47,553 nt of DNA, taken from IMG/VR virus record IMGVR_UViG_2939177367_000001; one strand, 5' to 3'. Shown here one piece after another: positions 1 through 46,000 of this stretch. Below the pieces are notes generated by a model. That model was not told the DNA's origin. It did not search any database and saw nothing but the letters and a program-made list of their open reading frames with translations. The stretch comes from a virus (taxonomy: Duplodnaviria > Heunggongvirae > Uroviricota > Caudoviricetes). A program made the translations under genes and the position numbers. How positions within the stretch are numbered: position 1 is the first letter of the stretch; each line of letters begins with the position of its first letter.

Positions 1-1254
1 ATGCTGGAACAAATGGGCATTGCCGCGAAGCAAGCCTCGTATAAATTAGCGCAACTCTCCAGCCGCGAAAAAAATCGCGTGCTGGAAAAAATCGCCGATG
101 AACTGGAAGCACAAAGCGAAATCATCCTCAACGCTAACGCCCAGGATGTTGCTGACGCGCGAGCCAATGGCCTTAGCGAAGCGATGCTTGACCGTCTGGC
201 ACTGACGCCCGCACGGCTGAAAGGCATTGCCGACGATGTACGTCAGGTGTGCAACCTCGCCGATCCGGTGGGGCAGGTAATCGATGGCGGCGTACTGGAC
301 AGCGGCCTGCGTCTTGAGCGTCGTCGCGTACCGCTGGGGGTTATTGGCGTGATTTATGAAGCGCGCCCGAACGTGACGGTTGATGTCGCTTCGCTGTGCC
401 TGAAAACCGGTAATGCGGTGATCCTGCGCGGTGGCAAAGAAACGTGTCGCACTAACGCTGCAACGGTGGCGGTGATTCAGGACGCCCTGAAATCCTGCGG
501 CTTACCGGCGGGTGCCGTGCAGGCGATTGATAATCCTGACCGTGCGCTGGTCAGTGAAATGCTGCGTATGGATAAATACATCGACATGCTGATCCCGCGT
601 GGTGGCGCTGGTTTGCATAAACTGTGCCGTGAACAGTCGACAATCCCGGTGATCACAGGTGGTATAGGCGTATGCCATATTTACGTTGATGAAAGTGTAG
701 AGATCGCTGAAGCATTAAAAGTGATCGTCAACGCGAAAACTCAGCGTCCGAGCACATGTAATACGGTTGAAACGTTGCTGGTGAATAAAAACATCGCCGA
801 TAGCTTCCTGCCCGCATTAAGCAAACAAATGGCGGAAAGCGGCGTGACATTACACGCAGATGCAGCTGCACTGGCGCAGTTGCAGGCAGGCCCTGCGAAG
901 GTGGTTGCTGTTAAAGCCGAAGAGTATGACGATGAGTTTCTGTCATTAGATTTGAACGTCAAAATCGTCAGCGATCTTGACGATGCCATCGCCCATATTC
1001 GTGAACACGGCACACAACACTCCGATGCGATCCTGACCCGCGATATGCGCAACGCCCAGCGTTTTGTTAACGAAGTGGATTCGTCCGCTGTTTACGTTAA
1101 CGCCTCTACGCGTTTTACCGACGGCGGCCAGTTTGGTCTGGGTGCGGAAGTGGCGGTAAGCACACAAAAACTCCACGCGCGTGGCCCAATGGGGCTGGAA
1201 GCACTGACCACTTACAAGTGGATCGGCATTGGTGATTACACCATTCGTGCGTAA
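1..1254 (+). CDS. proA: gamma-glutamyl phosphate reductase (complete, 417 aa)
   Basis: Full-length ORF starting at window position 1; translation matches my recollection of E. coli ProA end to end. Confidence 0.95.
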
Positions 1255-1368: not shown

Positions 1369-1444
1369 GCCGATATAGCTCAGTTGGTAGAGCAGCGCAT
1401 TCGTAATGCGAAGGTCGTAGGTTCGACTCCTATTATCGGCACCA
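1369..1444 (+). tRNA. thrW: tRNA-Thr, anticodon CGT at 1402-1404
   Basis: 76-nt sequence GCCGATATAGCTCAGTTGGTAGAGC...GGTTCGACTCCTATTATCGGCACCA with cloverleaf arms and CCA end; lies between proA and the integrase, the known P22-type attachment site. Confidence 0.9.
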
Positions 1445-1458
1445 TTAAAATCAATAAG

Positions 1459-2622
1459 TTACACATCATTAGTACCTTCCTTATTTTTTGACTGGGACAA
1501 ATTTGGGACCGATGGGTTCAGGATCGAGTCTATTTGCCGTGCGTGTTCGGTAAGGTGATTAGGTGCAAGGTGAGCATATCGACGAACCATTTCGATAGAC
1601 TCCCAGCCTCCCATTTCCTGTAACACTGACAACGGGACTCCGGCTTGAACCAGCCAACTTGCCCAGGTGTGTCTCAAGTCGTGAAATCTGAAATCATCAA
1701 TACCAGCCCGTCTCAGCGCCGCTTTCCAGGCTGTGTTTGCGTCATACCGCATCTTCCTTACTGTTGGCGCTTTCGTTCCGTCTGGTTTGGTACAGCTTTC
1801 CTTGTACACAAATACCCAACGGTGATGATTCCCGATTTGTTTTTTCAATACGCGACATGCAGTATCATTCAGCGCAACGCCAATTGCGCGGTTTGATTTA
1901 CTCTCTTCCGGGTTTATCCATGCCACCCGGCGCTGCATATCTATTTGTTGCCATTCAAGGTTGATGATGTTCGAGCGTCTTAAGCCTGTTGCCAGTGCAA
2001 ATTCAACAACAGACTTTAATGGCTCCGGACATTCATCAATCAGCCTTTGTGCTTCATGGGGCTCCAGCCAGCGGATCCGTTTATTCTTTGGTTGAGGCAC
2101 TTTAATAATTGGTGCCTTATCCAGCATTTTCCATTCACGCTCTGCGGCTCTTAGTAGGGCCTTTATAAATGAAAGATGCGTAGCCTTCGTTGCAACGGAC
2201 GCTGGTTTTGGCGTGTATTCTGGAACAGGTTTCCCTTTTTTTCTGCATGCTTCTGCCCTGAGTTTCCAGTTTTCCTCATGACGCCGGTTCGTCATTTTCT
2301 GCATTGCTGAATAAATTTTTGATTCAGTAATGTCTCTTAGTTGCATTCCTGCGAAATGTTGAAGCCAGAATCCGATCCGGCTTTTGTCATCGTCCAGTGA
2401 TTTTTTATGTGCTTTCTCTTCAAGCCACCTGACACAAGCTTCCTCGAACGTTATATCAGGTATTTCACCAAGTTTGCTGACCCGCCATGCTTCAGCCTTT
2501 AGCTTGTCATGGAGTTCTGTCGCCTGCCTTTTGTCCTTTGTTCCAAGAGACTGTTTAAATCTTTTACCGTTCGGCAATGTGAAACTGGCGTACCATATTT
2601 CACCTCTGCGGAAGAGTGACAT
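1459..2622 (-). CDS. int: tyrosine integrase, phage P22 Int-like (387 aa)
   Basis: N-terminus [21 protein letters not shown] and C-terminal [16 protein letters not shown]...VRRYAHL catalytic region match recalled P22 Int; sits beside thrW. Confidence 0.9.
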
Positions 2623-5200: not shown

Positions 5201-5404
5201 TTCACATCTCCTCAAGTTATCAGTTACTTGTTGATGGGGACCAGATTGTTAAAGAGCTAAGCGTCCTGTAGGGCGCTTTTTTGTTGCTAACGAATCATCC
5301 TGGACTTCATATGCCCCAGGCGGCTACTTCGTGGGCGTCCTGCCTGTTCGTTGTTTCGCTTGGGTACATTATGTATCTCAAAGGTACATTGTCAAGTATA
5401 AAAA

Positions 5405-5428
5405 AACCTGCCGAAGCAGGTTCATAAA
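5405..5428 (-). terminator. rho-independent terminator downstream of repressor gene
   Basis: Hairpin AACCTGC-CGAA-GCAGGTT preceded on + strand by A7 (U-run on minus transcript), immediately 3' of the repressor stop. Confidence 0.5.
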
Positions 5429-5434
5429 CATTGA

Positions 5435-6109
5435 TTAGGCTTTGATTTTGTATCTTCTTGGTTTTCCTGAGAAAATCACTGTACCAATTATAGAGCAATT
5501 ACCGTTGATCTTAATGTAAGGCTCAGGCCAGTTTGGGTTTAACGCTTTGAGATAACGCTGTGTCCCATCTTCTATCAACCTTTTGAAGGTGGTTTCACCT
5601 GTATCGTGCATCAATGCAATAACGTCGTCACCGTGGCAGGCAGGTACTTCAGGATCGACAAAAATCATGTCTCCCGGGCGGTACTCATCAATCATTGAAT
5701 CACCTATCACCCGCAAGATATAAGTCATTTCCCCACAGGGTACAGGGCAGGGATACGTTTCTGCTGTGCTCAAATCAACCTCAGAATATCCAACTTCTTT
5801 CCATGCTCCGGCCTGTACCCATGATATGACAGGGACTAATGTGATTTGTTTATTAGTGATTGAAACATCAGGTTTTTTTGTGATGTTCGTTGTCTGGTGT
5901 TCTTGATCGAGCCATCCGACAGGCAGGTCGAAACATTTTTCGATGTGTCGTGCCATGCTGTCACCGATATTTTTAGTAGCACCATCTCCCATAAACCTGC
6001 TGGTCTGGGTTGGCTCGCGATCAATCATAGTGGCAAAGGAAGAATTCCCGCCAACACCATCTCTCAGTTTTCTGGCGTTAGACCGCCGGATGTCATGGAT
6101 TGTTTTCAT
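5435..6109 (-). CDS. prophage repressor, CI-like with C-terminal S24 (LexA-type) peptidase domain (224 aa)
   Basis: C-terminal VIGDSM...PGDMIFVDPE...KRL matches the S24 Ser/Lys autopeptidase fold; divergently oriented from a Cro-like gene. Confidence 0.85.
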   Translation of the reverse strand: MKTIHDIRRSNARKLRDGVGGNSSFATMIDREPTQTSRFMGDGATKNIGDSMARHIEKCFDLPVGWLDQEHQTTNITKKPDVSITNKQITLVPVISWVQAGAWKEVGYSEVDLSTAETYPCPVPCGEMTYILRVIGDSMIDEYRPGDMIFVDPEVPACHGDDVIALMHDTGETTFKRLIEDGTQRYLKALNPNWPEPYIKINGNCSIIGTVIFSGKPRRYKIKA

Positions 6110-6124
6110 AACGAAATTAAAACC

Positions 6125-6145
6125 CTTGTACCGTTAAGGTACAAG
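6125..6145. promoter_or_regulatory. operator-like perfect palindrome CTTGTACC-N5-GGTACAAG in the cI/cro intergenic region
   Basis: 8-bp perfect inverted arms; GTAC-containing half-site motifs recur downstream of cI at 5366-5395. Confidence 0.5.
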
Positions 6146-6172
6146 TATCTTGAAGGTTCATTTCAATCATGT

Positions 6173-6197
6173 AATATGTACACCGGAGGTACATATT
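6173..6197. promoter_or_regulatory. 9-bp inverted repeat AATATGTAC-N7-GTACATATT enclosing the cro RBS
   Basis: Perfect 9-bp arms; the spacer contains the GGAGG RBS of the Cro-like gene. Confidence 0.4.
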
Positions 6198-6199
6198 GT

Positions 6200-6400
6200 A
6201 TGAAAGCGTATTGGGACTCTTTAACCAAAGAACAGCAGGGCGAGTTGGCCGGAAAAGTTGGCTCAACACCTGGCTACTTACGGCTGGTTTTCAATGGCTA
6301 TAAAAAAGCCAGTTTTGTGCTGGCTAAAAAACTTGAGCAATGCACGTCAGGTGCAATTACGAAATCTGACTTAAGACCGGATATCTATCCGAAAGATTAG
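6200..6400 (+). CDS. Cro-like HTH regulator, YdaS family (66 aa)
   Basis: GGAGG RBS; C-terminal TSGAITKSDLRPDIY resembles the Rac YdaS Cro-like family; position opposite repressor. Confidence 0.7.
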   Translation: MKAYWDSLTKEQQGELAGKVGSTPGYLRLVFNGYKKASFVLAKKLEQCTSGAITKSDLRPDIYPKD

Positions 6401-6431
6401 CAGAACACTTTCAATTTTTAACCACAGAACG

Positions 6432-6995
6432 ATGAGGCTAATCGTGGGTAAGCATCACTGGAAAATAGAAAAACAGCCTGAGTGGTACGTGAAAGCTGTC
6501 AGAAAAACTATCGCGGCGTTGCCGGGTGGTTACGCTGAAGCGGCTGACTGGCTCGATGTAACAGAAAACGCTTTATTCAACCGCCTTCGTGCAGATGGCG
6601 ATCAGATTTTCCCGCTGGGATGGGCAATGGTTTTACAGCGTGCTGGTGGCACTCACTTCATTGCTGATGCTGTGGCGCAGTCTGCAAATGGCGTCTTTGT
6701 GTCTCTTCCTGACGTCGAGGATGTGGACAACGCCGATATCAACCAACGCCTGCTGGAGGTCATTGAACAGATCGGCAGTTATTCAAAACAGATTCGTTCA
6801 GCAATTGAAGACGGTGTAGTGGAACCGCATGAGAAGACAGCAATTAACGACGAGTTGTACCTCTCAATTTCGAAGCTGCAGGAGCATGCAGCACTGGTCT
6901 ACAAAATTTTTTGCATTTCAGAAAGTAATGACGCCCGCGAGTGTGCAGCTCCGGGCGCCGTGGCGTGTCGTGACTGTGGAGAAACTAACGCATGA
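6432..6995 (+). CDS. phage regulatory protein, possibly YdaT/CII-position family (187 aa)
   Basis: Gene immediately after the YdaS-like cro as in Rac ydaS-ydaT; family call is from synteny and weak recollection. Confidence 0.4.
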
Positions 6996-7350
6996 ACAGT
7001 TTAACAACACACTACCGTCGCTCGCAACTGATTGCGCTTCCTGTACCGGGTGGAAAAGCGAAGGTGGAGTATTGCTATGCAGTGAATGTACCAGGTGACA
7101 GGGAAATTGTAACCCACAGCTTTGCAGAGTGGGCTGTGGGGGATTTCAACCGGCAGAAGGAGGCAGTCCTTTGCGACAAGTTAACCGCTGGTTCAAAGAT
7201 CACTACGGAGTGCCCGTCAGAGTCATTCGTTGGGAGCCGGAAACACAACGGGTTATCTACCTCCGTGAAGGCTATGAGCATGAGTGCTTCAGCCCGCTCG
7301 AACAGTTTCGTCGTAAATTCAGGGAAATAGAGGTCGGTCATGAGCACTAA
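6992..7350 (+). pseudogene. hypothetical gene with apparent frameshift (two protein-like half ORFs in different frames)
   Basis: Frame-2 ORF 6992..7330 is protein-like only in its N-half; frame-1 ORF 7129..7350 only in its C-half; a G5 run at 7138-7142 lies at the junction and one added G joins them into about 119 aa. Confidence 0.4.
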
Positions 7351-8281
7351 ATTAACCGGCTATGTATGGGATGGTTGCGCAGCGTCAGGCATGAAATTAT
7401 CCAGCGTGGCAATTATGGCCCGCCTGGCTGATTTCAGTAATGACGAAGGTGTGTGCTGGCCATCAATTGAAACCATTGCCCGCCAGATTGGCGCGGGGAT
7501 GAGTACCGTCAGAACGGCTATCGCACGGCTGGAAGCAGAAGGCTGGTTAACGCGTAAGGCGCGTCGCCAGGGTAACCGCAATGCGTCGAATGTTTATCAG
7601 CTTAACGTTGCGAAGCTTCAGGCAGCGGCATTTTCTCAACTGTCAGATTCTGACCCGTCAAAATCTGACGTATCAAAATCTGACCCGTCAAAATTTGATG
7701 CGTCGAAATCTGGCAAAAAAGCGGGTTTTCACCCGTCAGAATCTGGCGGGGATCCGTCAGTAAAATCAAAACATGATCCGTCAGATAAAAAACCTTCTCG
7801 TCCGGACGCTTCGCAACCGGACACGCAGACGGCTGAACAGGATTTTTTAACTCGCCATCCTGATGCGGTTGTATTCAGCCCTAAAAAGCGCCAGTGGGGA
7901 ACGCAGGATGATTTGACCTGCGCACAGTGGCTCTGGAAAAAAATCATTGCCCTGTACGAGCAGGCCGCCGAATGTGACGGCGAGGTGGTTCGTCCCAAAG
8001 AACCGAACTGGACAGCATGGGCAAACGAAATTCGCCTGATGTGTGTGCAGGATGGTCGTACTCACAAACAAATCTGCGAGATGTACAGCCGCGTCAGCCG
8101 CGATCCGTTCTGGTGCCGTAACGTGCTCAGCCCGTCGAAGTTGCGGGAAAAATGGGATGAGCTTTCCCTGCGCTTATCGCCGTCCGTCAGCACGCACACA
8201 GAAAAACGTGAAGACCCGTACTTCAAAGCCAGTTACGACAACGTGGACTACAGCCAGATCCCGGCAGGATTCAGGGGGTGA
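7340..8281 (+). CDS. replication initiator, lambda O-like (313 aa)
   Basis: N-terminal wHTH typical of O-like initiators; iterons embedded in the coding sequence as in lambda ori. Confidence 0.7.
   Translation: MSTKLTGYVWDGCAASGMKLSSVAIMARLADFSNDEGVCWPSIETIARQIGAGMSTVRTAIARLEAEGWLTRKARRQGNRNASNVYQLNVAKLQAAAFSQLSDSDPSKSDVSKSDPSKFDASKSGKKAGFHPSESGGDPSVKSKHDPSDKKPSRPDASQPDTQTAEQDFLTRHPDAVVFSPKKRQWGTQDDLTCAQWLWKKIIALYEQAAECDGEVVRPKEPNWTAWANEIRLMCVQDGRTHKQICEMYSRVSRDPFWCRNVLSPSKLREKWDELSLRLSPSVSTHTEKREDPYFKASYDNVDYSQIPAGFRG
7641..7790. repeat. origin iterons (about 6-7 copies of an 18-bp CCGTCA(A/G)AATCTGA-type unit) inside the O-like gene
   Basis: Tandem units visible in DNA; encode the repeated DPSKSD/VSKSD peptide. 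Confidence 0.6.
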
Positions 8282-8283
8282 TC

Positions 8284-8772
8284 ATGAGTCTTTTGAATGA
8301 CGTTCAGAAATTCATTGAAGCCCATCCGGGCTGTACTTCCGGAGACATTGCAGATGCTTTTGCTGGTTACTCACGGCAGCGCGTTCTGCAGTCAGCAAGC
8401 AAGTTACGTCAGAGTGGGCGTGTGGCTCACCGTTGTGAAGGAGATACACGCAGACATTTCCCGCGCCTGACTGAGAGAGCGCAGGAGCCGGAACCACAAT
8501 CTGTTCGTGAAACCAGACCTGTGCGCAATTTCTATGTCGGCACTAACGATCCCCGGGTGATTTTGTGCCTGACCCGCCAGGCTGAAGAGCTGGAGTCCAG
8601 GGGCTTATACCGTCGTGCTGCAACGGTGTGGATGGCGGCATTCCGTGAAAGTCACTCCCAGCCAGAACGAAACAACTTTCTGGCGCGTCGAGAGCGGTGC
8701 TTACGGAAAAGCAGCAAGCGCGCTGTATCGGGTGATGAATGGTATCTGTCAGGGAATTACGTGGGGGCTTAA
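8284..8772 (+). CDS. hypothetical protein with PerC-like C-terminal motif (about 162 aa)
   Basis: Motif GLYRRAATVWMAAF...RRERC resembles the PerC/Pch regulator signature (from memory). Confidence 0.4.
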   Translation: MSLLNDVQKFIEAHPGCTSGDIADAFAGYSRQRVLQSASKLRQSGRVAHRCEGDTRRHFPRLTERAQEPEPQSVRETRPVRNFYVGTNDPRVILCLTRQAEELESRGLYRRAATVWMAAFRESHSQPERNNFLARRERCLRKSSKRAVSGDEWYLSGNYVGA

Positions 8773-9098
8773 TGACGACGTTAACTCAGTGTCAGCAGCA
8801 GGTGCTGGATATGCTGATTTCTTATCAGAAAGAACGTGGCTTCCCGCCAACCAATCAGGAGGTGGCAACCATGCTGGGATACCGTTCAGTGAATGCAGCG
8901 GTGGAGCATCTTCGCGCACTGGAGAAAAAAGGCGTCATCACGATAAAGCGTGGCGTGGCCCGGGGCATCACGCTTCATACCGCGGTGAAGGACGACGACA
9001 GCGAGGCGGTCGGGATTATCCGCTCACTGCTTGCCGGTGAGGAAAACGCAAGGCTGCGTGCAACCCACTGGTTACATGAGAGGGGCCTGAAAGTATGA
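8772..9098 (+). CDS. LexA N-terminal DNA-binding domain paralogue lacking peptidase domain (108 aa)
   Basis: LTQCQQQVLDMLISYQKERGFPPTNQEVATMLGYRSVNAAVEHLRALEKKGVI aligns by eye to LexA residues about 1-70; no S24 domain follows. Confidence 0.65.
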   Translation: MTTLTQCQQQVLDMLISYQKERGFPPTNQEVATMLGYRSVNAAVEHLRALEKKGVITIKRGVARGITLHTAVKDDDSEAVGIIRSLLAGEENARLRATHWLHERGLKV

Positions 9099-9484
9099 AG
9101 CTGATCCTGCCTTTTCCGCCCAGCGTGAACACGTACTGGCGACACCCCAACAAAGGGGCGTTTGCTGGTAAGAGCCTGATAAGCGCGGCGGGGCGAAAAT
9201 TCCAGAGCGCGGCGTGCGCAGCAATAGTTGAGCAGTTACGTCGTCTGCCGAAACCAACGTCGGCACCTGCTTCAGTGGAGATCGTGTTGTTTCCTCCGGA
9301 TAACAGGATCCGCGATCTGGACAACTATAACAAGGCGCTGTTTGACGCCCTGACCCACGCGGGGGTGTGGGAAGACGACAGTCAGGTGAAAAGAATGCTG
9401 GTGGAGTGGGGACCGGTTATCCCGGAAGGGAAGGTCGAGATCACTATCAGTAAGTACGAGAAAACGGCGGGTGCAGCTGCCTGA
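9095..9484 (+). CDS. rusA: Holliday junction resolvase RusA (129 aa)
   Basis: Motifs LPFPPSVNTYWRH and RDLDNYNKALFDALT match the RusA family. Confidence 0.85.
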   Translation: MKLILPFPPSVNTYWRHPNKGAFAGKSLISAAGRKFQSAACAAIVEQLRRLPKPTSAPASVEIVLFPPDNRIRDLDNYNKALFDALTHAGVWEDDSQVKRMLVEWGPVIPEGKVEITISKYEKTAGAAA

Positions 9485-9503
9485 TTAAGAGGAGAAACGA
9501 AGT

Positions 9504-10313
9504 ATGAATAATCTGATGGTCATTGATGGTATTGAAGTTCGTCGTGATGCTTATGGGCGTTACAGCCTGAACGATCTGCATCGCGCAGCAGTAGCATCTG
9601 GTGCAAATGCCAGAACCAAGGAGCCAGGAAAGTTTCTTTCCAGCCAACAAACTGTTGAGCTTGTTCATGAATTAACCAACACCCAGAATTTGGGTGTTGA
9701 CCCGGTGAGTGTGATTCATGGGGGAAATGAACGGGGAACGTATGTCTGTAAGGAACTGGTGTATGCCTATGCAATGTGGATCAGCCCGTCATTCCATCTG
9801 AAGGTGATCCGTACTTTCGATATGGTAACCAGCGCGCCGGAAAAGTTATCCGGACAGGCTGCTGACAAGATGCAGGCTGGCGTGATTCTGCTGGACTTTA
9901 TGCGCCGGGAGTTAAACCTGTCTAACTCATCTGTGCTTGGTGCCTGTCAGAAACTCCAGGAGGCTGTTGGCTTACCGAATCTGGCACCGCGCTATGCCAT
10001 TGATGCTCCTGCTGACGCGCCTGATGGCTCAAGTCGCCCTACGCTGTCGCTGAGTGCACTGCTGAAACAGTATGGTATCCGCCTTACGGCTAATCAGGCA
10101 TATCACCAGATGGCGAAGCTGGGGATCGTCGAACAGCGCGAACGATACAGCCGTACAGCGATTAACAACATCAAAAAATTCTGGTCGCTGACGGCGAAAG
10201 GCTGCATGTTCGGCAAGAACATCACCAGTCCCGCAAATCCGCGCGAGACGCAGCCGCATTTCTTCGAATCCCGATTCCCAGAGCTGTTAAAGCTGCTCGA
10301 TACCGTTCATTGA
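9504..10313 (+). CDS. KilA-N domain protein (269 aa)
   Basis: N-terminal IDGIEVRRDAYGRYSLNDLHRAAVASG is the KilA-N signature; usual position near rusA/Q. Confidence 0.7.
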   Translation: MNNLMVIDGIEVRRDAYGRYSLNDLHRAAVASGANARTKEPGKFLSSQQTVELVHELTNTQNLGVDPVSVIHGGNERGTYVCKELVYAYAMWISPSFHLKVIRTFDMVTSAPEKLSGQAADKMQAGVILLDFMRRELNLSNSSVLGACQKLQEAVGLPNLAPRYAIDAPADAPDGSSRPTLSLSALLKQYGIRLTANQAYHQMAKLGIVEQRERYSRTAINNIKKFWSLTAKGCMFGKNITSPANPRETQPHFFESRFPELLKLLDTVH

Positions 10314-10314
10314 G

Positions 10315-11310
10315 GTGACCGTGAGAGCACTACTGACCCCTGAAATTGCCCCGCGTATGGGGATCGTATTGTTCAGGCCAGGTTCAGAGCTGATGCCCTT
10401 GTTTATGCAGGGGCGTGTCCTGCTGGAGCCTGAGCCGGAACGTTATTCATCTTTCGCCAGTGGTGCCGTTCCCGCGGCATCACAACCGCTGGCGGATGAT
10501 CCTGCCGTTCGGGCCGTGTTCCGCAATGAGGCAGTGATCCGTCGTGCTGGTGGCGTGGAATGTCTTGAAAGCTGGTTACTTCGTGAAAAAGGCTGCCAGT
10601 GGCTTCATTCCGACTGGCACAGCGAGAACATGACAACAATGCGACACGCTCCGGGCGCAATCCGTCTGTGCTGGCACTGCGATAACCAGCTGCGCGATCA
10701 GTTCACGGAACGGCTGGAATCAATGGCAACGGATAACTGTGCCCGCTGGGTGTTGTCTGTTGTGCGTCGGGATCTCGGTTTTGATGACAGTCACGTTGTG
10801 ACAATGCCGGAACTGTGCTGGTGGCTGATTCGTAATGACCTGGCGGACGCCTTACCGGAAAGTGCAGCCCGTAAGGCACTGAGATTACCGAAGCCTGTTG
10901 TGCCGTCTGTCACCCGGGAAAGTGACCTTGTGCCTTCGGTTCCTGCCACCAGCATCATCCAGGATAAGGCGAAAAAGGTGCTGGCGCTGAAAGTGGATCC
11001 GGAGTCGCCGGAGTCTTTTATGTTACGCCCAAAACGTCGCCGCTGGGTTAATGAAAAGTACACGCGCTGGGTTAAGACACAGCCGTGTGCATGTTGTGGA
11101 AAGCCCGCTGATGATCCCCACCACCTGATAGGTCACGGTCAGGGTGGAATGGGAACAAAAGCGCATGACCTTTTTGTGTTGCCTTTGTGCAGAAAGCATC
11201 ACGACGAGCTGCATGCGGATACCGTGGCATTTGAAGAGAAGTATGGCTCCCAGCTGGAGCTGATATTTCGTTTTATCGATCGTGCGCTGGCAATAGGTGT
11301 ACTGGCGTAA
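10315..11310 (+). CDS. DUF968-family protein with Cys/His-rich C-terminus (331 aa)
   Basis: C-terminal CACCGKPADDPHHL...CRKHHDELH motif recalled as DUF968, common in lambdoid nin regions. Confidence 0.55.
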   Translation: MTVRALLTPEIAPRMGIVLFRPGSELMPLFMQGRVLLEPEPERYSSFASGAVPAASQPLADDPAVRAVFRNEAVIRRAGGVECLESWLLREKGCQWLHSDWHSENMTTMRHAPGAIRLCWHCDNQLRDQFTERLESMATDNCARWVLSVVRRDLGFDDSHVVTMPELCWWLIRNDLADALPESAARKALRLPKPVVPSVTRESDLVPSVPATSIIQDKAKKVLALKVDPESPESFMLRPKRRRWVNEKYTRWVKTQPCACCGKPADDPHHLIGHGQGGMGTKAHDLFVLPLCRKHHDELHADTVAFEEKYGSQLELIFRFIDRALAIGVLA

Positions 11311-11323
11311 GTGGAGAACGAGC

Positions 11324-12076
11324 ATGAACCTTGAAGCCTTACCGAAATATTACTCCCCAAAATCTCCAAAATTGAGCGATGACGCACCGGCGACAGGCTC
11401 TGGTGGTTTAACAATTACGGATGTGATGGCTGCGCAGGGGATGGTGCAGTCGAAAGCACCGCTTGGGTTTGCCTTATTCCTGGCAAAAGTTGGTGTTCAG
11501 GATCCTCAGTTTGCGATTGAAGGTCTGCTCAATTACGCGATGGCACTGGATAACCCGACATTGAATAAATTGAGTGAAGAAACCCGGCTACAGATTATTC
11601 CTTACCTTGTGAATTTTGCCTTTGCTGATTATTCCAGGTCTGCGGCAAGTAAGGCTCGCTGTGAGCATTGTGCTGGTACTGGATTTCATAATGTATTGCG
11701 CGAAGTGGTGAAACACTCCAGAAGCGGGGAATCTGTTATCAAGGAAGAGTGGGTGAAGGAACTATGTCAGCATTGTCATGGTAAGGGAGAAGTCAGCACA
11801 GCGTGCAGAGGGTGTAAGGGTAAAGGTATTGTCCTGGATGAAAAAAGGACCCGGCTTCATGGCACGCCTGTTTATAAGATTTGTGGGCGTTGCAATGGAA
11901 ATCGGTTTAGCCGTTTACCGACCACACTGGCGCGGCATCATGTCCAGAATCTGGTAACAGACCTGACGGATTATCAGTGGTACAAAGGATATGCAGACGT
12001 CATTGATAAACTGGTTACAAAGTGCTGGCAGGAAGAAGCATATGCTGAAGCGCAATTGAGAAAAGTGACAAGATAA
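11324..12076 (+). CDS. Q: late-gene antiterminator Q (250 aa)
   Basis: CxxC...CxxC zinc-binding core (CEHCAGTG, CQHCHGKG, CRGCKGKG) and position before the lysis cassette; GGAG RBS. Confidence 0.75.
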   Translation: MNLEALPKYYSPKSPKLSDDAPATGSGGLTITDVMAAQGMVQSKAPLGFALFLAKVGVQDPQFAIEGLLNYAMALDNPTLNKLSEETRLQIIPYLVNFAFADYSRSAASKARCEHCAGTGFHNVLREVVKHSRSGESVIKEEWVKELCQHCHGKGEVSTACRGCKGKGIVLDEKRTRLHGTPVYKICGRCNGNRFSRLPTTLARHHVQNLVTDLTDYQWYKGYADVIDKLVTKCWQEEAYAEAQLRKVTR

Positions 12077-12182
12077 ATGATTTTCACCAAAGATAGCGAC
12101 ATGATGCTTGCATTTTTCAAAAAACATGGATAAGATTTTCTCAACGATGGGCTTTGTATGTCTACCGTTGATAAGTCCAAAA

Positions 12183-12213
12183 AACCGCAGCCGAGCGGGT
12201 TAAATTATTTTTT
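12183..12213 (+). terminator. late-promoter-proximal hairpin plus T-run (tR'-like)
   Basis: AACCGCAGCCGAGCGGGTT imperfect stem followed by a T-rich tract, downstream of Q. Confidence 0.3.
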
Positions 12214-12230
12214 CTTACACGGGGATATGG

Positions 12231-12761
12231 ATGTTATACCGAGATCTTCTGCCTATTTTCTCAGAAAGAACCATATTTGAAGCTCCTGAGGCTGAAAGAA
12301 TACTTCGTGAGCAATATTCTATCATTGCCCCCTCTCCTGTAATTCAGGAGATTTATTATGGATTGGTAGGCGATGACAGATTTCAGAAGCTTTATGGGGA
12401 TCTTGATATTGACCAAATTGAATGGAAATTGATTGAACTTCCCACTAAAAACTTTTTAACTATCGGGGATAATGCTACTTGCCCTGATTTTTTGCATGAG
12501 GTCGTTGAAGATTACATGACCCGTAAAGGTGATGTATTTATGGATGATGAAATAAAAGCGCATTGGTGTAATTTTGGCACATGGTGCGAACCACCATTTT
12601 TTATAGATCGAGCTTTGCTGAAAAGTAATACAACAGGGCTCCATTTAATGGAAGGGCATACAAGAGTTGGAACCCTGTTAGGGGCAGTTAAGTATAACTT
12701 CGTTAAGCTTGCTAATACTCATAAAATTTATTATGCGCAAGCAAAAGAATGTATTAAATAA
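12231..12761 (+). CDS. hypothetical moron protein (176 aa), AT-rich
   Basis: Long ORF in AT-rich DNA between Q and the lysis genes; followed by a strong terminator. Confidence 0.55.
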   Translation: MLYRDLLPIFSERTIFEAPEAERILREQYSIIAPSPVIQEIYYGLVGDDRFQKLYGDLDIDQIEWKLIELPTKNFLTIGDNATCPDFLHEVVEDYMTRKGDVFMDDEIKAHWCNFGTWCEPPFFIDRALLKSNTTGLHLMEGHTRVGTLLGAVKYNFVKLANTHKIYYAQAKECIK

Positions 12762-12798
12762 GTTGAGTGAAATTACTGTTGGTTTTTTAACAATACTT

Positions 12799-12820
12799 AC
12801 CGCGTTCTCGCGGTTTTTTT
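12799..12820 (+). terminator. rho-independent terminator
   Basis: CCGCG-TTCT-CGCGG hairpin followed by T7. Confidence 0.55.
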
Positions 12821-12918
12821 ATAAATTAAACATTGGTGCAGTACGGTAAACACGCTGGTGGTCGTGAATACTGACTGTTTATCTTGCTGGCTTTTTAGAC
12901 AAGAGTTATTGGTATGTC

Positions 12919-13137
12919 ATGTTAACCAGAAGGGAAAAAGACATGCTAAAACAGCAAGATATGACAGAAACGGCGAAAGTTGTTTTTAATGAATTAAGCA
13001 TCGAACCGGCAACAGTCGGGGAGATTGCACAAAACACATACCTTTCACGCGAACGCTGTCAGTTAATACTGACCCAGCTGGTTATGGCGGGGCTGGCAGA
13101 TTACCAGTTCGGCTGTTACAGACGCCTTCAGCAATGA
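12919..13137 (+). CDS. small putative winged-helix DNA-binding protein (72 aa)
   Basis: Short ORF upstream of the methyltransferase; wHTH-like segment ATVGEIAQNTYLSRERCQLILTQL. Confidence 0.4.
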   Translation: MLTRREKDMLKQQDMTETAKVVFNELSIEPATVGEIAQNTYLSRERCQLILTQLVMAGLADYQFGCYRRLQQ

Positions 13138-13286
13138 AGGGCTTTTAATTTGTGAAAATGGGCGGCTGGTGGGTGTTGGTAGCACCTGCCAGCCATTCGC
13201 TCATGCTTACTGGTCACAAGCGAACCACGGCCCACTGCTTTAGCGCAAAAGCAGAGTGAGCCTACCAGAGTTACGCTTACTGATCC

Positions 13287-14339
13287 ATGAAAAATACTGT
13301 AAAAATAAACAGTGTTGATTTAATCAACGCTGATTGCCTGCATTTTATTCAGTCCCTGCCTGATGATTCCATTGACCTGATTGTTACCGATCCGCCGTAC
13401 TTCAAGGTGAAACCCAACGGCTGGGACAATCAGTGGAAAGGGGACGAAGATTACCTTAAGTGGCTGGACCACTGTCTGGCCCAGTTCTGGCGGGTGTTAA
13501 AGCCTGCCGGAAGCCTTTACCTGTTCTGTGGGCATCGCCTGGCATCTGATATTGAGATCATGATGCGTGAACGTTTCAACGTGCTTAACCATATCATCTG
13601 GGCGAAGCCGTCCGGACGTTGGAATGGGTGTAATAAAGAAAGTCTGCGCGCATATTTTCCTGCCACAGAGCGCGTTCTGTTTGCTGAACATTACCAGGGG
13701 CCATATCGCGGCAAAAGTGACGGCTATGCGGCAAAAGAAAGGGAACTCAAACAGCACATAATGGCACCGCTGATATCGTATTTCAGGGATGCTCGTGCCG
13801 AACTGGGTATAACGGCAAAACAAATTGCCGAAGCCACAGGTAAGAAAAATATGGTTTCCCACTGGTTTGGTGCCAGTCAGTGGCAGTTGCCGAATGAGGC
13901 TGACTATCGGAAGTTACAGGCACTGTTTTCCCGTATAGCGGCAGAGAAGTTTCAGGAACAACAACTGGAACAACCACACCACCAGCTGGTGGCATCTTAT
14001 GATTCACTGAATCGCAAATATTCTGAATTGCTGGATGAGTTTAAATCTCTCCGGCGCTATTTCTCCGTATCAGTCTCCGTGCCTTATACCGATGTCTGGA
14101 TGCATAAACCCGTTCAGTTCTACCCGGGTAAACATCCGTGTGAGAAACCTGCGGATATGCTCCGGCAAATAATCAATGCCAGTAGTCGACCTGGTGATCT
14201 GGTTGCTGATTTTTTTATGGGATCCGGTTCCACAATAAAAGCAGCAATGGCGCTGGGGCGTCGGGCCTTAGGTGTTGAGCTTGAGTCAGAGCGGTTTAAC
14301 CAGACAGTGAAAGAGATAAACGAGCTGGTGGGGAAATAA
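13287..14339 (+). CDS. DNA methyltransferase, DPPY motif (N6-adenine/N4-cytosine class), orphan (350 aa)
   Basis: Catalytic motif IV DLIVTDPPYF near N-terminus, C-terminal AdoMet-binding FFMGSGST; no cognate endonuclease adjacent. Confidence 0.8.
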   Translation: MKNTVKINSVDLINADCLHFIQSLPDDSIDLIVTDPPYFKVKPNGWDNQWKGDEDYLKWLDHCLAQFWRVLKPAGSLYLFCGHRLASDIEIMMRERFNVLNHIIWAKPSGRWNGCNKESLRAYFPATERVLFAEHYQGPYRGKSDGYAAKERELKQHIMAPLISYFRDARAELGITAKQIAEATGKKNMVSHWFGASQWQLPNEADYRKLQALFSRIAAEKFQEQQLEQPHHQLVASYDSLNRKYSELLDEFKSLRRYFSVSVSVPYTDVWMHKPVQFYPGKHPCEKPADMLRQIINASSRPGDLVADFFMGSGSTIKAAMALGRRALGVELESERFNQTVKEINELVGK

Positions 14340-14343
14340 TCTG

Positions 14344-14366
14344 GTGGCCACGTAGGTGGCCTTTTT
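14344..14366 (+). terminator. hairpin plus T-run upstream of holin
   Basis: GGCCAC-GTAG-GTGGCC stem followed by TTTTTA. Confidence 0.45.
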
Positions 14367-14405
14367 ATTTCCATTACACAGCACCCGCATCTGCGAGGTG
14401 GGGTT

Positions 14406-14621
14406 ATGAAATCCATGGATAAGTTAACAACGGGTGTCGCCTATGGCACCTCAGCAGGTAGTGCCGGGTACTGGTTTTTACAGTTGCTCGATAAAGTCAC
14501 GCCCTCACAGTGGGCGGCAATAGGTGTGCTGGGTAGTCTGGTATTTGGCTTGCTGACGTATCTGACAAACCTTTATTTCAAGATTAAAGAAGACAAGCGT
14601 AAGGCTGCACGGGGAGAGTAA
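14406..14621 (+). CDS. S: pinholin, phage 21 S21-like (71 aa) with dual-start motif
   Basis: MKSMDK dual Met start and sequence match recalled S21 pinholin. Confidence 0.85.
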
Positions 14622-14625
14622 TTCA

Positions 14626-14970
14626 ATGACTCAAAAATATGAACTGATTGTGAAAGGGATCCGCAATTTTGAGAATAAAGTTACGGTAACTTTAGCGTTA
14701 CGGGACAAAGAACGCTTTGACGGTGAAATTTTTGACCTGGACATCTCGCTGGACCGTGTTGAAGGTGCCGCGCTGGAGTTTTATGAGGCAGCAGCCAGAA
14801 GGAGCATCAGACAGGTCTTCCTGGATGTTGCTGCCGGGTTATGTGAAGGGGATGAGCTGTCGCCGGAAAAGCGCCCCATAATTTTAGAGGCGCAGAATGT
14901 GTGGATAACCTACAAAGGAAAGCTACCGGGAAGAATTACTGGTTCTCTGAAGACTCCGCCGAAATGGTAA
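14626..14970 (+). CDS. hypothetical protein (114 aa) inserted between holin and endolysin
   Basis: ORF with RBS directly after the holin stop; not part of canonical phage-21 lysis cassettes. Confidence 0.45.
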   Translation: MTQKYELIVKGIRNFENKVTVTLALRDKERFDGEIFDLDISLDRVEGAALEFYEAAARRSIRQVFLDVAAGLCEGDELSPEKRPIILEAQNVWITYKGKLPGRITGSLKTPPKW

Positions 14971-15208
14971 TTTCACCAGCATATTTTTCTTCCAGTAATA
15001 CCGCCAGCCACTTGAAAGAATTTTGTTGTTGCTGGGACCATTTGGGGTTGAGTGATTCAAGCTGGAGCGATGCCAGTGTTGGTTGCATTTGTTCCTTGGG
15101 AATTGAGAATGCCAGATATGAAAATGCGACAGTAAGGGCATTTACATCATCCCGAAGCTTGGAAATGCAGTCGAGCAACTCCTGTAGAGAAATGGTGCTA
15201 TTGTCCAT
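14936..15208 (-). CDS. hypothetical protein (90 aa), convergent with 14626..14970
   Basis: ATG with GAGAGGA RBS 6 nt upstream; 3' ends of the two genes overlap by 35 bp. Confidence 0.4.
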   Translation of the reverse strand: MDNSTISLQELLDCISKLRDDVNALTVAFSYLAFSIPKEQMQPTLASLQLESLNPKWSQQQQNSFKWLAVLLEEKYAGEITISAESSENQ

Positions 15209-42156: not shown

Positions 42157-43238
42157 ATTCGTAATGATTACCTAAATACGTTATTCTTTTGTTCAAAAAG
42201 TGATTTTGCTATAGGTAGGGAGTATGTTCTTGGATTAAGAATAAAAAATCGCCATGAAAGAGCTTCATGGCGAGTACATAAACGTACAAAATGTGATGAA
42301 AGTAGAGTGGCGTAAGCCACTATATTAAGATATGACAATAGCGAAGAAAAGTAAATAACATTTTATGGACGTTTAATTTTTAATTATAAAAACTAGAGTG
42401 CCCGATATTGTTTATCTTGCTTTAAAATAATGTACTCAAACCAAATTTTTGAGCTAAAAGCTCAAATAATATAAATGCAATAATAATGTTTAATAAGACA
42501 ATTAGCTTGCTTTGTATTTTCATTTCGGAATACTGTTAAGTAACTTTGATGACCCTAACAATAGATCGGAATTTTCTTAGAGTCAATGGTCACTGTTTTT
42601 GCTTGCAAAGCAAATGTTTTGGTGGTTATAAGTTGTCTTAATATAGTCACGCATGCAACTTGTTCCATGCGGAGATTAAAGATTGGAATATAACGCGAAG
42701 ATGGAATTAAATTACATTTGCAATAATCAATTTATTATTACTCAATAATTACCGATATTATTATTGTAAATTAATCATTAGAGTGCAAAAAGAAATGTAA
42801 CGGCAAAATAAGAGGACGATAGCTGAGAAAAAAGCGTGCTTTCCCAATCTGGGGCAAATCACGTCTGAATGACACCTGAAAACAGGTGGTAGCCTCAAGA
42901 AGGCTTGGAATATTCTTCTTTAATGTTATGTAATTCATTGATTTTTCGTGTACGATTTTAAGACATTTATTCCAAGAAAAATTTTTAACTCTTTGATTTT
43001 TCGACTCTGTATCATCGGTCTCGAAAACCGTAGACACATAGTATGCGTTAATTTATGAACAAACTACTTGTCTGCTGTTTTTCTGTCATTAGTCGTATAT
43101 AGAATGATTCTCTATGCCTAACAAAGCATCACCAGTGCTAGATTACGTTGTAGTCACTGTTTAAATATCCAGATAAAACATTTCCTTCTGGGTTGAATGA
43201 GTGATAAAGTTTCACCCATTAGACCCCTTGGAGGAATT

Positions 43239-44672
43239 ATGTCTGAATTTGAAGTGTTGGCACAGCATCTGCTGAAGGAAGCCGAGGCGGAAGAAAAGCT
43301 GCGACAGGAAAATGATAAAAAGCTTATCGAGAAAGTGCTGGAAATCTATGATCAGAAGTATGTGGCTGAATTACTGAGAAAAGTCGGAAAAAATGAGTGG
43401 AGCCGTGAAACCATTAACCGCTGGATTAATGGCAAGTGTTTACCAAAATCGTTGACTTCAGTAGAAGAGTCTCTTCTGCGTAAGATGCTACCAGAACCAC
43501 CTGCAAACCATCCGGAATATGCTTTCCGCTTCATTGACTTATTTGCTGGAATTGGAGGGATACGGAAAGGTTTTGAGGCCATTGGAGGCCAGTGTGTTTT
43601 TACCAGTGAATGGAATAAAGATGCTGTGCGTACATACAAGGCCAACTGGTTTAACGATGAACAGGTGCATAAATTCAATCTCGATATTCGGGAAGTCACG
43701 CTGAGTGATAAAACCGATGTATTGGAAACGGATGCTTATGCATATATTGATGAGCATGTGCCGGATCATGATGTGCTTCTTGCGGGGTTCCCGTGCCAGC
43801 CATTTAGCCTTGCTGGTGTTAGTAAGAAAAACTCACTTGGTCGTGCGCATGGTTTTGAATGTGAAGCACAAGGAACACTTTTTTTTGACGTGGCACGTAT
43901 TATACGAGCAAAAAAACCGGCAATTTTTGTGCTGGAAAATGTCAAAAATCTGAAGAGCCATGATAAGGGTAAAACTTTCAAAGTCATTATGGAGACCCTT
44001 GACGAGCTGGGCTACGAAGTTGCCGATGCTGCAGAAATGGGAAAAAACGATCCAAAGATTATCGATGGGAAGCATTTTTTGCCTCAGCATCGTGAACGCA
44101 TTGTTCTGGTCGGATTTAGACGAGATCTGAATATTCACAAGGGGTTTACCTTGCGTGATATCAGTCGTTTTTATCCGGAACACCGCCCATCATTTGGTGA
44201 ATTGCTGGAGCCTGTAGTCGACAGTAAATATATACTTACGCCAAAACTATGGGAGTACCTTTATAACTACGCCAAAAAGCATGCAGCCAAGGGGAATGGT
44301 TTTGGCTTTGGGTTGGTCAATCCTGAGAATAAGGAAAGCATTGCACGCACACTTTCTGCCAGATATCACAAAGACGGATCAGAAATTCTTATTGATCGTG
44401 GTTGGGATATGGCAACGGGAGAGGCTGACTTTATGAATGAGAGTAATCAGGCTCGTCGACCACGCAGGCTGACTCCCCGAGAGTGCGCACGCCTTATGGG
44501 ATTTGAAAAACCTGGAGGGAAACCATTCCGTATTCCGGTTTCAGATACTCAGTCATATCGGCAGTTCGGTAACTCAGTTGTGGTGCCAGTATTTGAAGCT
44601 GTTGCCAGACTTCTGGAACCCTATATCCTCAAAGCTGTTTCTGCTGATGCTGGTAAGACTGGGCAGCCTTGA
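43239..44672 (+). CDS. ecoRIIM: DNA cytosine-5 methyltransferase, M.EcoRII/Dcm-like (477 aa)
   Basis: Motifs [10 protein letters not shown] (AdoMet binding), GFPCQPFS (catalytic PC), ENV, QFGNSV; GGAGG RBS before MSEFEVLAQ; length equals M.EcoRII. Confidence 0.9.
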
Positions 44673-44706: not shown

Positions 44707-45915
44707 CTATGATAGTTCAGCGTAAAGCTCTATCAGCTCAGTAATGAATGCTCCGAGCGTTATTAATTCTTCTCTAACTGCTTCTGGGTATTTTTTATGT
44801 AAAGTTGATGGTACAACGAGTCTGACACCCGCATCTTTCATTTCTCGGTATTGTGCTGAAGAAACACCTTCTTGCAGTGTAAATAAATGTACCTGATGGA
44901 TTTTATCTGCTTCATTCAGTATCTGACGCCAGCGATCTTTGCAGGTGGTCTTTACTGCCAGCATACGTAAGTTTTCTACAGGAAATTCAACGTTATGATA
45001 TGCCTCTGCTGAAGGAAACAGGAAATCTGGTTTTTTATTACCTTCAGTAACTGCCTGAGTGGAGAAATGCCGTAGTCCGTGCTCGATAAAAAGCTTCTCT
45101 AGGTGAAGTTCAAGTGATTTGCCTGCCCTTGATTTACGTCGATTACTGACAGAGTTGGCTAATGCAATAAACTCATCTACAGAATCGAATCCTTTCTTAA
45201 TAATATCAAGAACATGTAATTCCTCGACGAGTAGAAAAATATCATACTCGACACGCCGACGGTCAATCAGTTGCTCATCTGGATCCTTGGAGTTTTTAGC
45301 ATAATGGCCAGCAGCATATTGAATAATTTCGTTTCCAGAAGGAAAACGCTTCTTCCAGTCTTCAGGAATAACATATTTATGATTTACTGGAGTTTGCTGA
45401 AGAGACAATCCGCCCAAAATTTGTCCGGCAGGGCCGGAAATTAGGGTTCCAGGTATGATTTCGCCAATAGCAGACTCGATGATATCCTCTTCATCGGGAT
45501 TGACGCAGACCCATATATCTACCTCGGAACAGTCAGTGTTCTGTTCGTTTAACCTGAAAGCAAGAATTGTGAGGGCTCCTGTATTTTCAGGGTTCTGTAA
45601 TGGACTTCCTCTCCCCCAGCGCGTAATTCTTTTTTCGTTTCGGGTCTTACCAAAATAACGGTTGTTGTAATAAATTGCGCGTGCTTGGGTATCAGGGCAA
45701 TCATGGGATGATACATGCGCAGTAAGGAAGACTGAAGGGTTCAGTTCGCGAGTATGATTGATAGATGGAAAAAGCTTTTCAACGATATTTGAGGGGATAT
45801 AAAGTCCGACCTGATGGCCACCTGTTGCGCCTGTGTCGTTTGCAGAAAGGCGTTTGATGTAGATAAAGTAATTCCCGCTTGCGATATCAAGCAGCCAGTT
45901 ATGAAAAACCGACAT
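44707..45915 (-). CDS. ecoRIIR: type IIE restriction endonuclease, EcoRII-like (about 402 aa)
   Basis: Translation MSVFHNWLL...YIKRLSANDTGATGGHQVGLYIP matches recalled R.EcoRII; convergent with its methyltransferase. Confidence 0.85.
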   Translation of the reverse strand: MSVFHNWLLDIASGNYFIYIKRLSANDTGATGGHQVGLYIPSNIVEKLFPSINHTRELNPSVFLTAHVSSHDCPDTQARAIYYNNRYFGKTRNEKRITRWGRGSPLQNPENTGALTILAFRLNEQNTDCSEVDIWVCVNPDEEDIIESAIGEIIPGTLISGPAGQILGGLSLQQTPVNHKYVIPEDWKKRFPSGNEIIQYAAGHYAKNSKDPDEQLIDRRRVEYDIFLLVEELHVLDIIKKGFDSVDEFIALANSVSNRRKSRAGKSLELHLEKLFIEHGLRHFSTQAVTEGNKKPDFLFPSAEAYHNVEFPVENLRMLAVKTTCKDRWRQILNEADKIHQVHLFTLQEGVSSAQYREMKDAGVRLVVPSTLHKKYPEAVREELITLGAFITELIELYAELS

Positions 45916-46000
45916 ATACATCCCTTTGTTAACATACAGTCAGGGTTAACATTTTTCCATAGTTATAGATAAGCGGCTAGGAACTTAAGGGAAAAACAAA

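Follow-up and report, generated by a model that had tools for sequence, protein, structure and literature searches.

Prophage induction, Shiga-toxin release, mutagenesis and antibiotic tolerance are all under the control of the SOS response. What, then, is the role of a phage gene that encodes the DNA-binding part of LexA without the autopeptidase part? Such a gene is present at positions 8772-9098 of the stretch of viral DNA analyzed here (IMG/VR record IMGVR_UViG_2939177367_000001, Caudoviricetes; 47,553 nucleotides (nt), hereafter the window), which beyond the integrase gene is an SfV-like lambdoid prophage at thrW. The gene is found in about 41% of complete E. coli genomes, and its carriers include Stx2c-converting phages and the O104:H4, ST131 and CFT073 lineages. 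On comparative evidence its product is very probably a DNA-damage-proof gene regulator. The reading that we favor, with a confidence a little short of even, is that of a RecA-proof transcription regulator with an operator of its own.

A LexA-type winged helix with an added tail

The protein, of 108 amino acids (aa) and 12 kDa, matches the Pfam profile LexA_DNA_bind (PF01726) at all 65 profile positions (1-65/65) with E=2.9e-19. A closer match to another winged helix-turn-helix family was sought and none was found: the runner-up in Pfam, HTH_Crp_2, reaches E=0.0016, below its own cut-off and 16 orders of magnitude behind. A few database members of the family are named 'Rrf2 family' by their sources, but Pfam gives only the sub-threshold HTH_Crp_2 match, and other winged-helix families were rejected. 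Among PDB sequences the best phmmer match is the LexA DNA-binding domain 1LEA (E=7e-16), aligned without gaps over residues 2-69, a range in which identity to E. coli LexA is about 50%; in a BLASTP comparison with full-length LexA, 90 residues align at 43% identity (E=8e-22). The lexA equivalog profile TIGR00498 aligns only over positions 1-91 of 203 and scores 70.8 bits, below its cut-off of 110.95. A single-sequence AlphaFold model was uninformative, with a predicted local distance difference test score (pLDDT) of 54.5, and an AlphaFold2 (AF2) model built on a 36-sequence family alignment was used instead (mean pLDDT 83.5, about 89 for the winged-helix part, residues 1-69). Foldseek superposes its N-terminal part on LexA in complex with DNA (3jso_B) with a root-mean-square deviation of 1.0 A over 68 columns at 50% identity. 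Derivation from the N-terminal domain of a gammaproteobacterial LexA is the best explanation of these similarities. No match to Peptidase_S24 (PF00717) was detected in the 108-aa protein, which ends at residue 108 and is followed by a complete RusA gene; because the autopeptidase domain is absent, RecA*-stimulated self-cleavage cannot inactivate the LexA-like protein. The PADLOC defense-system models gave no membership, only a weak winged-helix match to a CARF model (E=3.6e-4).

In place of the peptidase, the AF2 model contains a low-confidence acidic linker and a family-specific two-helix hairpin (Table 1). The tail helices are predicted with pLDDT 78-87; given the low linker pLDDT and a predicted template modeling score (pTM) of 0.57 despite the mean pLDDT of 83.5, the model does not define how the tail is oriented with respect to the domain. 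In members from nine or more genera that share 38-57% identity, the tail is conserved: A97 and L101 do not vary, and the hydrophobic positions 79, 82, 83 and 86 are conserved as well. Foldseek found no PDB counterpart for it, and hhalign did not align it to LexA: the family profile matches ten true LexA proteins with a probability of 99.9% over 75 columns and ends at residue 76 (LexA 74). Judged from these alignments, the tail is not the cleavage region of LexA and appears unrelated to LexA. Pairwise HMMER and BLAST alignments run past the domain and place A88-G89 opposite the LexA cleavage bond A84-G85. The same stretch varies in the family (ERES, TRKE, DDQP, AEEP, others), and a relic cleavage site at A88-G89 was rejected, AG being not conserved and the profile alignment having ended at residue 76; the match is treated as due to chance, or at best as a faded relic. 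We infer that the hairpin, which follows a flexible acidic linker and has a conserved, Ala/Leu-rich face, may dimerize subunits. At the same slot before rusA, Pseudescherichia carries an 82-aa version without the tail (L036 9392-9640; L037) and Raoultella a 167-aa version with a different C-terminal domain of ~90 aa (L025 4835-5338). In view of these variants, the winged helix is the constant part of the protein and the C-terminal module is exchangeable.

The gene is real, constrained and under purifying selection. Its open reading frame (ORF) extends from the ATG at 8772 to the TGA at 9096-9098; the ORF list holds an alternative upstream ATG at 8739 that would give 119 aa, and the 327-nt form is that of every RefSeq copy fetched, with a start shared by homologues. 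Of 5426 complete E. coli genomes, 2232 carry the 327-nt sequence at 95% identity or more, with a median of one copy and a maximum of four; intact copies are present in 2222 of the 5426. It is also present in 50 phage records, including SfV (orf42), mEp460 (gp46), SfIV and 15 Stx2c-converting phages, and in CFT073, the O104:H4 strain HUSEC2011 and an ST131 strain. Among eight E. coli, Shigella and phage copies, the pairwise ratio of nonsynonymous to synonymous substitution rates (dN/dS) is 0.03-0.3, with one pair at 0.48; residues 21-54 show no amino-acid change, and synonymous changes occur in the tail as well. An exhaustive HMMER and profile search recovered full-length relatives of 105-135 aa and 38-60% identity in Salmonella, Citrobacter, Cronobacter, Atlantibacter, Leclercia, Kosakonia, Klebsiella and Enterobacter, all of which keep the two-helix module. 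The PHROGs family phrog_362 ('transcriptional repressor') matches with E=1.1e-59, residues 1-108 covering profile positions 1-106 of 106, tail included. Databases label the copies 'LexA family transcriptional regulator', 'LexA family protein' or 'LexA repressor', and predicted viral structures often include LexA-domain proteins of 65-150 aa that stand alone. Annotation and cataloguing of the gene thus predate this analysis, phages commonly have its architecture, and one analogue has been characterized.

An original prediction, made from the DNA alone, had described the product as a LexA winged-helix paralogue lacking the autopeptidase, and had placed its gene in the replication/nin region, away from an immunity switch that already has a repressor with an S24 domain. 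All of this is borne out by the Pfam matches, by the absence of a protease domain, by the neighboring O-like, PerC-like, RusA, KilA-N, DUF968 and Q genes and by the divergent S24 repressor gene (Table 1). It had missed the conserved two-helix module, the existing annotation and commonness of the gene, and its analogue, gp6 of phage GIL01.

Base contacts, operators and LexA-type boxes

Two papers that cite the nuclear magnetic resonance and crystal work, and from which our contact list is taken, give S39, N41, A42, E44 and E45 as DNA or base contacts of E. coli LexA (PMC3091678, PMC13416735). The window protein keeps S39, N41, A42 and E45 and has V in place of E44; R28 of LexA is replaced by N and P40 by V, and H46, L47, K53, R64 and G65 are kept. 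When true LexAs are aligned, R28 does not vary and E44 is conserved to at least 90%. Across 14 non-redundant members of the family, the scaffold and backbone-contact positions S39, N41, K53, R64, G65 and I66 are invariant, while positions 28, 40, 44 and 45 are among the most variable: their entropy is 2.1-2.9 bits, and the domain averages 1.10. The recognition helix accordingly occurs as VNAAVEH, VNTITGH, HNAAAEH, PNAATDM, PNAANDH, HNSARDT, GNAAFEH, SNAVLLH, PNAAAEH, PNAAATH and SNAAAQQ. The host genera of the family share one LexA and one SOS box, so variation at these four positions disfavors family-wide mimicry of the SOS box and fits diverged operators. An invariant scaffold with variable base-contact positions argues for a DNA binder of diversified specificity, and binding of CTGT-type half-sites by the window subfamily is possible, not secured. 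The earlier suggestion that the protein occupies SOS boxes therefore stands only in part: four of the five listed contacts are retained, but E44V, R28N and the family-wide variability speak against it.

According to the reading that we favor, the gene would, as its position suggests, be expressed along with the other genes of the early rightward replication/nin operon (O-like, PerC-like, RusA, antirepressor-like, DUF968 and Q). As a delayed-early product, the protein would be present after prophage induction or infection and not in the quiet lysogen. By homology and on the model, it would dock on DNA in the manner of LexA, helix 40-52 entering the major groove and residues 56-68 forming the wing, and the C-terminal hairpin, standing in for the S24 domain, would pair two subunits for the reading of a palindrome. 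With no protease domain or conserved cleavage site, its activity would persist once host LexA and the phage cI repressor are cleaved. The operator would most likely be a palindrome related to the LexA box, diverged from the canonical SOS box and differing between subfamilies. Such divergence is proposed by precedent, as the independently derived gp6 of GIL01 has drifted to a site of its own (PMC6182141).

Several points weigh against this proposal. No operator was found: none of the short inverted repeats between 4000 and 14500 tracks the recognition-helix variants, and none of the palindromes in the RusA-to-antirepressor spacer, compared in 13 loci, varies with the recognition helix. Dimerization through the tail is itself inferred, and the tail seems not to be indispensable to the family, given the Pseudescherichia and Raoultella versions. 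Full-text literature searches found no functional study of any family member. As to particular targets, a recurrent 'palindrome' in the spacer was rejected as an operator: it is a hairpin at the RNA level, which shows G.U pairs as well as compensatory changes, and L011 and L012, which encode the same protein, have different stems. The oR/oL and qut sites are unlikely targets, as the same allele of the LexA-like gene occurs with different cI and Q genes. No candidate was found for a gp6-style palindrome over the -35 element of the late promoter; late transcription here depends on the Q antiterminator.

The chief rival to an operator of its own makes the protein a surrogate for LexA, a noncleavable binder of CTGT-N8-ACAG that re-silences LexA-controlled promoters in lytic growth. 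Its targets would be the host SOS regulon, LexA-controlled antirepressors, competitors' colicins or toxins, and the prophage's own boxed methyltransferase genes. We consider this possible and on balance doubtful. Its full form, in which a RecA-proof stand-in re-occupies LexA boxes after induction, shuts the host SOS regulon, silences genes of rivals and controls the boxed methyltransferases, appears less likely again. Identity of about 50% to the LexA N-terminal domain, retention of S39, N41, A42, E45, H46, L47, K53, R64 and G65, and the weak operator binding still displayed by the isolated LexA N-terminal fragment would suit such a binder, but the substitutions fall on E44, at least 90% conserved in true LexAs, and on the invariant R28, and the hosts share one SOS box while positions 28/40/44/45 vary between subfamilies. 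The Klebsiella and Enterobacter genes, which lie downstream of dinI behind a canonical SOS-box promoter, provide an SOS-related context, yet Klebsiella (SNAVLLH) and Enterobacter (PNAAAEH) have different recognition helices behind the same kind of upstream box. The case of gp6, moreover, indicates that truncated LexA homologues drift to new sites (PMC6182141).

Two unexpected LexA-box-like sites in the window, at 13295 (16/20 to the SOS consensus) and 43155 (14/20), also speak for surrogacy at first sight. In dinucleotide shuffles of the window, sites of at least 14/20 are expected 0.05 times against the 2 observed, and 0 of 300 shuffles reach 2; at 16/20 or better, 1 is observed against 0.003 expected, the chance of at least one being about 0.003. 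The only exact CTGT-N8-ACAG in the window (13297-13312) belongs to the 13295 box, whose sequence SfV, mEp460, a Salmonella prophage and Citrobacter phage phiNP share without change. The Kosakonia copy (L028, position 6794) has TACTGTAAATTTAAACAGTA (17/20): there the spacer and three encoded residues are different, but the CTGT and ACAG arms are intact. On this pattern of conservation the 13295 box is taken as a candidate for a genuine LexA-type operator, and its position suggests LexA control, or a roadblock, of the late-operon methylase. It is no evidence of the specificity of the paralogue. Dependence of the box on the LexA-like gene was rejected, since phiNP has the box and lacks the gene and since, of the phage collection, the 28 records that match the methyltransferase 5' region and the 50 that match the LexA-like gene overlap only partly; as phiNP illustrates, host LexA explains the box without the paralogue. 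The scan for CTGT-N8-ACAG that the original prediction had proposed thus yields one exact box, explicable by host LexA. The 43155 site could instead be the methylase's own autoregulatory operator.

Further observations concern such boxes in the window and in related prophages. A second imperfect palindrome (AAACAGTGTTGATT/AATCAACGCTGATT, 13307-13335) overlaps the right arm of the 13295 box and could be a 5' hairpin of the mRNA or a second operator. Matches to CTGT-N8-ACAG with one mismatch number 28 in the window against 15.4 +/- 4.4 expected (1 of 100 shuffles reaches 28), five of them lying within 1.25 kilobases (kb; 13056-14307) around the N6/N4 methyltransferase gene. In Klebsiella and Enterobacter (L003, box 5385-5404 and genes 5425-6393; L030 9311; L034 9467; L035 9306), the canonical SOS-box promoter is situated ~600 nt upstream of the LexA-like gene. 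An example of the box, TACTGTTTATTTATACAGTA, overlaps the -10 element of the promoter that drives dinI and a small ORF, and the paralogue of these genera may itself be SOS-induced. Strong LexA boxes (16-18/20) occur in the immunity regions of related prophages (L002 31970-31989, L020 7103-7122, L022 1865-1884), inside the 5' part of the mEp460 cI-like gene and upstream of the CII-like gene in Shigella and Citrobacter. Two more are found at the mEp460 dinI promoter (L002 23255 and 23283).

Operon context and the weaker readings

The TAA of the PerC-like ORF overlaps the ATG of the LexA-like gene (TAATG), and the stop codon of the latter overlaps the ATG of rusA (ATGA). These overlaps on both sides embed the LexA-like gene translationally in the early rightward operon, and no promoter-like or terminator-like site was found on the plus strand at the gene. 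The same syntenic slot is occupied in at least 11 genera, within the nin region of lambdoid prophages, with RusA and/or DUF968 and Q downstream. Loci of E. coli, Shigella, Salmonella, Citrobacter, Cronobacter, Atlantibacter, Leclercia and Kosakonia read replication - PerC-like - (1-2 DNA methyltransferases, family varying) - LexA-like - RusA - antirepressor-like - DUF968 - Q. Those of Klebsiella and Enterobacter read SOS-box promoter - dinI - small ORF - LexA-like - small ORF - DUF968. RusA directly follows the LexA-like gene in the loci of the former eight genera and in those of Raoultella and Pseudescherichia. The LexA-like gene evolves faster than its neighbors, with 47-58% identity in the same loci versus 69-81% for RusA and 61-69% for DUF968.

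The slot just upstream appears from these comparisons to be a variable methylase slot. A Dam-type methyltransferase gene separates the PerC-like and LexA-like genes in SfV and mEp460 (L001 29614-30267, L002 35775-36428) and in most E. coli genomes among the matches listed; other genera have 1-2 methyltransferases of other families, and the window (at the 8772 junction) and CFT073 have none. The PerC-like protein is the fastest-diverging product of the module, with 25-47% identity in most of the distant syntenic loci and at least 64% in E. coli, Shigella and phage copies. In addition to its C-terminal PerC domain, it has an N-terminal region with weak matches to MarR-type and BilQ-type winged helices (PHROGs, NCBIfam).

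This neighborhood lends itself to another interpretation, improbable in our judgment: the LexA-like protein might be a DNA-targeting or protein-binding accessory of nin-region functions that, for instance, guides or restrains the DUF968/HNH-like protein or RusA. DUF968 does lie within 2 kb downstream in every enterobacterial locus, including the Klebsiella loci that lack RusA, and RusA is translationally coupled in most loci; lambdoid nin synteny, however, is generally conserved whatever the function, and phiNP has DUF968 without the LexA-like gene. In one database protein (P0158, 240 aa), the family winged helix is followed by the HNH-like C-terminus of DUF968. With two thirds of DUF968 missing, P0158 is probably the product of a deletion that fused near-adjacent genes, not a Rosetta stone; the database also contains fusions of the family to Dam, RusA and the O-like gene (P0022, P0254, P0001).

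The original prediction had also offered a decoy, and a poison subunit that forms heterodimers with host LexA, or presents RecA* or S24 proteases with a mimic of the LexA cleavage site, thereby uncoupling phage or host genes from the SOS response, is very unlikely. LexA dimerizes through its C-terminal domain, so the dimer interface is absent here, and the tail is unrelated to LexA by hhalign; the pairwise alignments that extend into the LexA linker, with A88-G89 opposite A84-G85, are offset by the lack of conservation of these residues in the family and by the end of the profile alignment at residue 76. It is hardly credible that the operon carries the gene along as a remnant, without function, of a truncated lexA-like gene: its truncated architecture and the frameshifted or fused variants in databases are outweighed by dN/dS of 0.03-0.3, a full-length intact ORF in thousands of genomes and a tail conserved across genera at 38-57% identity.

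The coordinates of the gene, its parts and the surrounding prophage are collected in Table 1. Inside the O-like gene, four 15-base-pair iterons (TCTGACCCGTCAAAA) at 7649-7712, which encode a SDPSKSD repeat stretch, presumably form the phage origin. An RNA-type hairpin (GGCGG-GTGCAG-CTGCC, 9466-9481) at the 3' end of rusA, ~20 nt before the KilA-N start at 9504, is conserved in 11 syntenic loci, always just upstream of the antirepressor-like gene, whichever family that gene belongs to. Its loop, (G/U)UGCAG, is constant and its stem covaries, with 96.4% of cells paired, compensatory changes in 3 of 5 pairs and G.U pairs; the score is reached by 0 of 500 shuffles, the alignment being anchored on the hairpin itself so that the counts lean toward structure. 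An Rfam search of 6000-15000 returned nothing relevant and no match for this hairpin.

Table 1. Features of the LexA-like gene, its product and the surrounding prophage in the window
Feature	Position	Strand	Evidence or remark
proA	1-1254		window start
tRNA-Thr(CGU) = thrW	1369-1444		
Tyrosine integrase	1459-2622	-	
cI-like immunity repressor with S24 autopeptidase, divergent	5435..6109	-	PF00717 (Peptidase_S24) E=1.5e-26; 100% identical to SfV cI
CII/CP76-like gene	6432-6995		
O-like replication gene	7340-8281		
PerC-like gene, upstream, same operon; stop overlaps LexA-like start	8278..8772	+	PF06069 E=1.8e-9; phrog_1324; equal position in relatives
LexA-like gene, complete, 108 aa	8772..9098	+	PF01726 E=2.9e-19; phrog_362 E=1.1e-59; 327-nt coding sequence in RefSeq copies
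LexA-type winged helix-turn-helix, residues 1-69	8772..8978	+	helices 6-22, 28-35, 40-52; wing strands 56-58, 66-68
Predicted recognition helix, residues 40-52 (VNAAVEHLRALEK)	8889..8927	+	alignments to LexA
Acidic linker, low-confidence, residues 70-74 (TAVKD, running into DDSE)	8979..8993	+	pLDDT block 71-80 averages 60
Family-specific two-helix hairpin, residues 75-103 (helices 75-88, 93-103)	8994..9080	+	AF2 secondary structure
RusA Holliday-junction resolvase, downstream; start overlaps LexA-like stop	9095..9484	+	PF05866 E=6e-15; complete gene
KilA-N antirepressor-like gene	9504-10313		
DUF968 gene	10315-11310		
Q antiterminator	11297-12076		PF03589
N6/N4 DNA methyltransferase, late operon	13287-14339		lysis genes next
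Candidate LexA-type operator TACTGTAAAAATAAACAGTG	13295..13314	.	16/20 to SOS consensus; over codons 3-9 of N6/N4 methyltransferase 13287-14339
LexA-box-like site CACTGTTTAAATATCCAGAT	43155-43174		14/20; ends 23 nt upstream of gene 43197
EcoRII-type C5 methyltransferase	43197-44672	+	N-terminal DNA_meth_N domain
R.EcoRII gene, convergent	44707-45921	-	past tail-fibre assembly gene, prophage right end

Comparison with known systems

A RecA*-proof regulator derived from LexA and made exactly when LexA is destroyed could reshape gene expression in the induced cell. Binding of SOS boxes would make it a widespread brake on the SOS response encoded by phages, an anti-SOS factor; if it has its own operator, it would represent an unrecognized layer of lambdoid early-to-late regulation. 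With the N-terminal domain of E. coli LexA (1LEA, 3JSO) the protein shares a homologous winged helix and S39, N41, A42, E45, K53, R64 and G65. It differs from LexA in lacking the S24 domain, the Ser119/Lys156 dyad and a conserved cleavage bond, in the changes E44V, R28N and P40V, in its unrelated two-helix tail, and in being encoded in a prophage early operon and not by an autoregulated chromosomal gene. The autocleavage fragment LexA(1-84), a short-lived degradation intermediate that retains weak operator binding, is likewise a LexA N-terminal domain without the dimerization and protease domain, whereas the window protein is the product of a stand-alone gene under purifying selection and has an added conserved tail.

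The lambdoid CI-type S24 repressors are also phage DNA-binding regulators that follow the logic of the LexA superfamily. They combine an HTH_3-type domain with a cleavable S24 domain and act at the immunity switch; the window protein, in contrast, is a noncleavable LexA winged helix that is not linked to immunity type. SfV orf42, mEp460 gp46 and the Stx2c-phage and CFT073 copies are the same gene, at 95-100% nucleotide identity and in the same operon position, although most copies are preceded by a Dam-type methyltransferase gene that the window and CFT073 lack. A pfam01726 'LexA family' pham, listed without functional data for 15 phages in a survey of Stx phages (PMC8136144), is probably the gene described here.

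The closest characterized analogue is gp6 of the Bacillus tectivirus GIL01, a truncated LexA homologue of 66 aa that is 44% identical to host LexA and is produced from the early operon (PMC6182141). It binds its own palindrome centered at -43.5 of the late promoter P3 and activates P3, which host LexA represses (PMC6182141). Both are phage-encoded, stand-alone LexA-type DNA-binding domains without a protease domain, and the window gene resembles that of gp6 in position, the latter being expressed from an early operon next to replication genes and acting after SOS induction. On the other hand, gp6 lacks the tail, and GIL01 has neither a cI-type repressor nor a Q antiterminator, both of which the window prophage possesses. 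BLASTP returned no alignment between the two proteins at E<=100 and thus no homology to gp6; as each resembles the LexA of its own host and not the other, the LexA domain would have been captured independently. The LexA-like gene of enterobacterial prophages would then be the second, independent case, after gp6 of GIL01, in which phages have domesticated the LexA DNA-binding domain.

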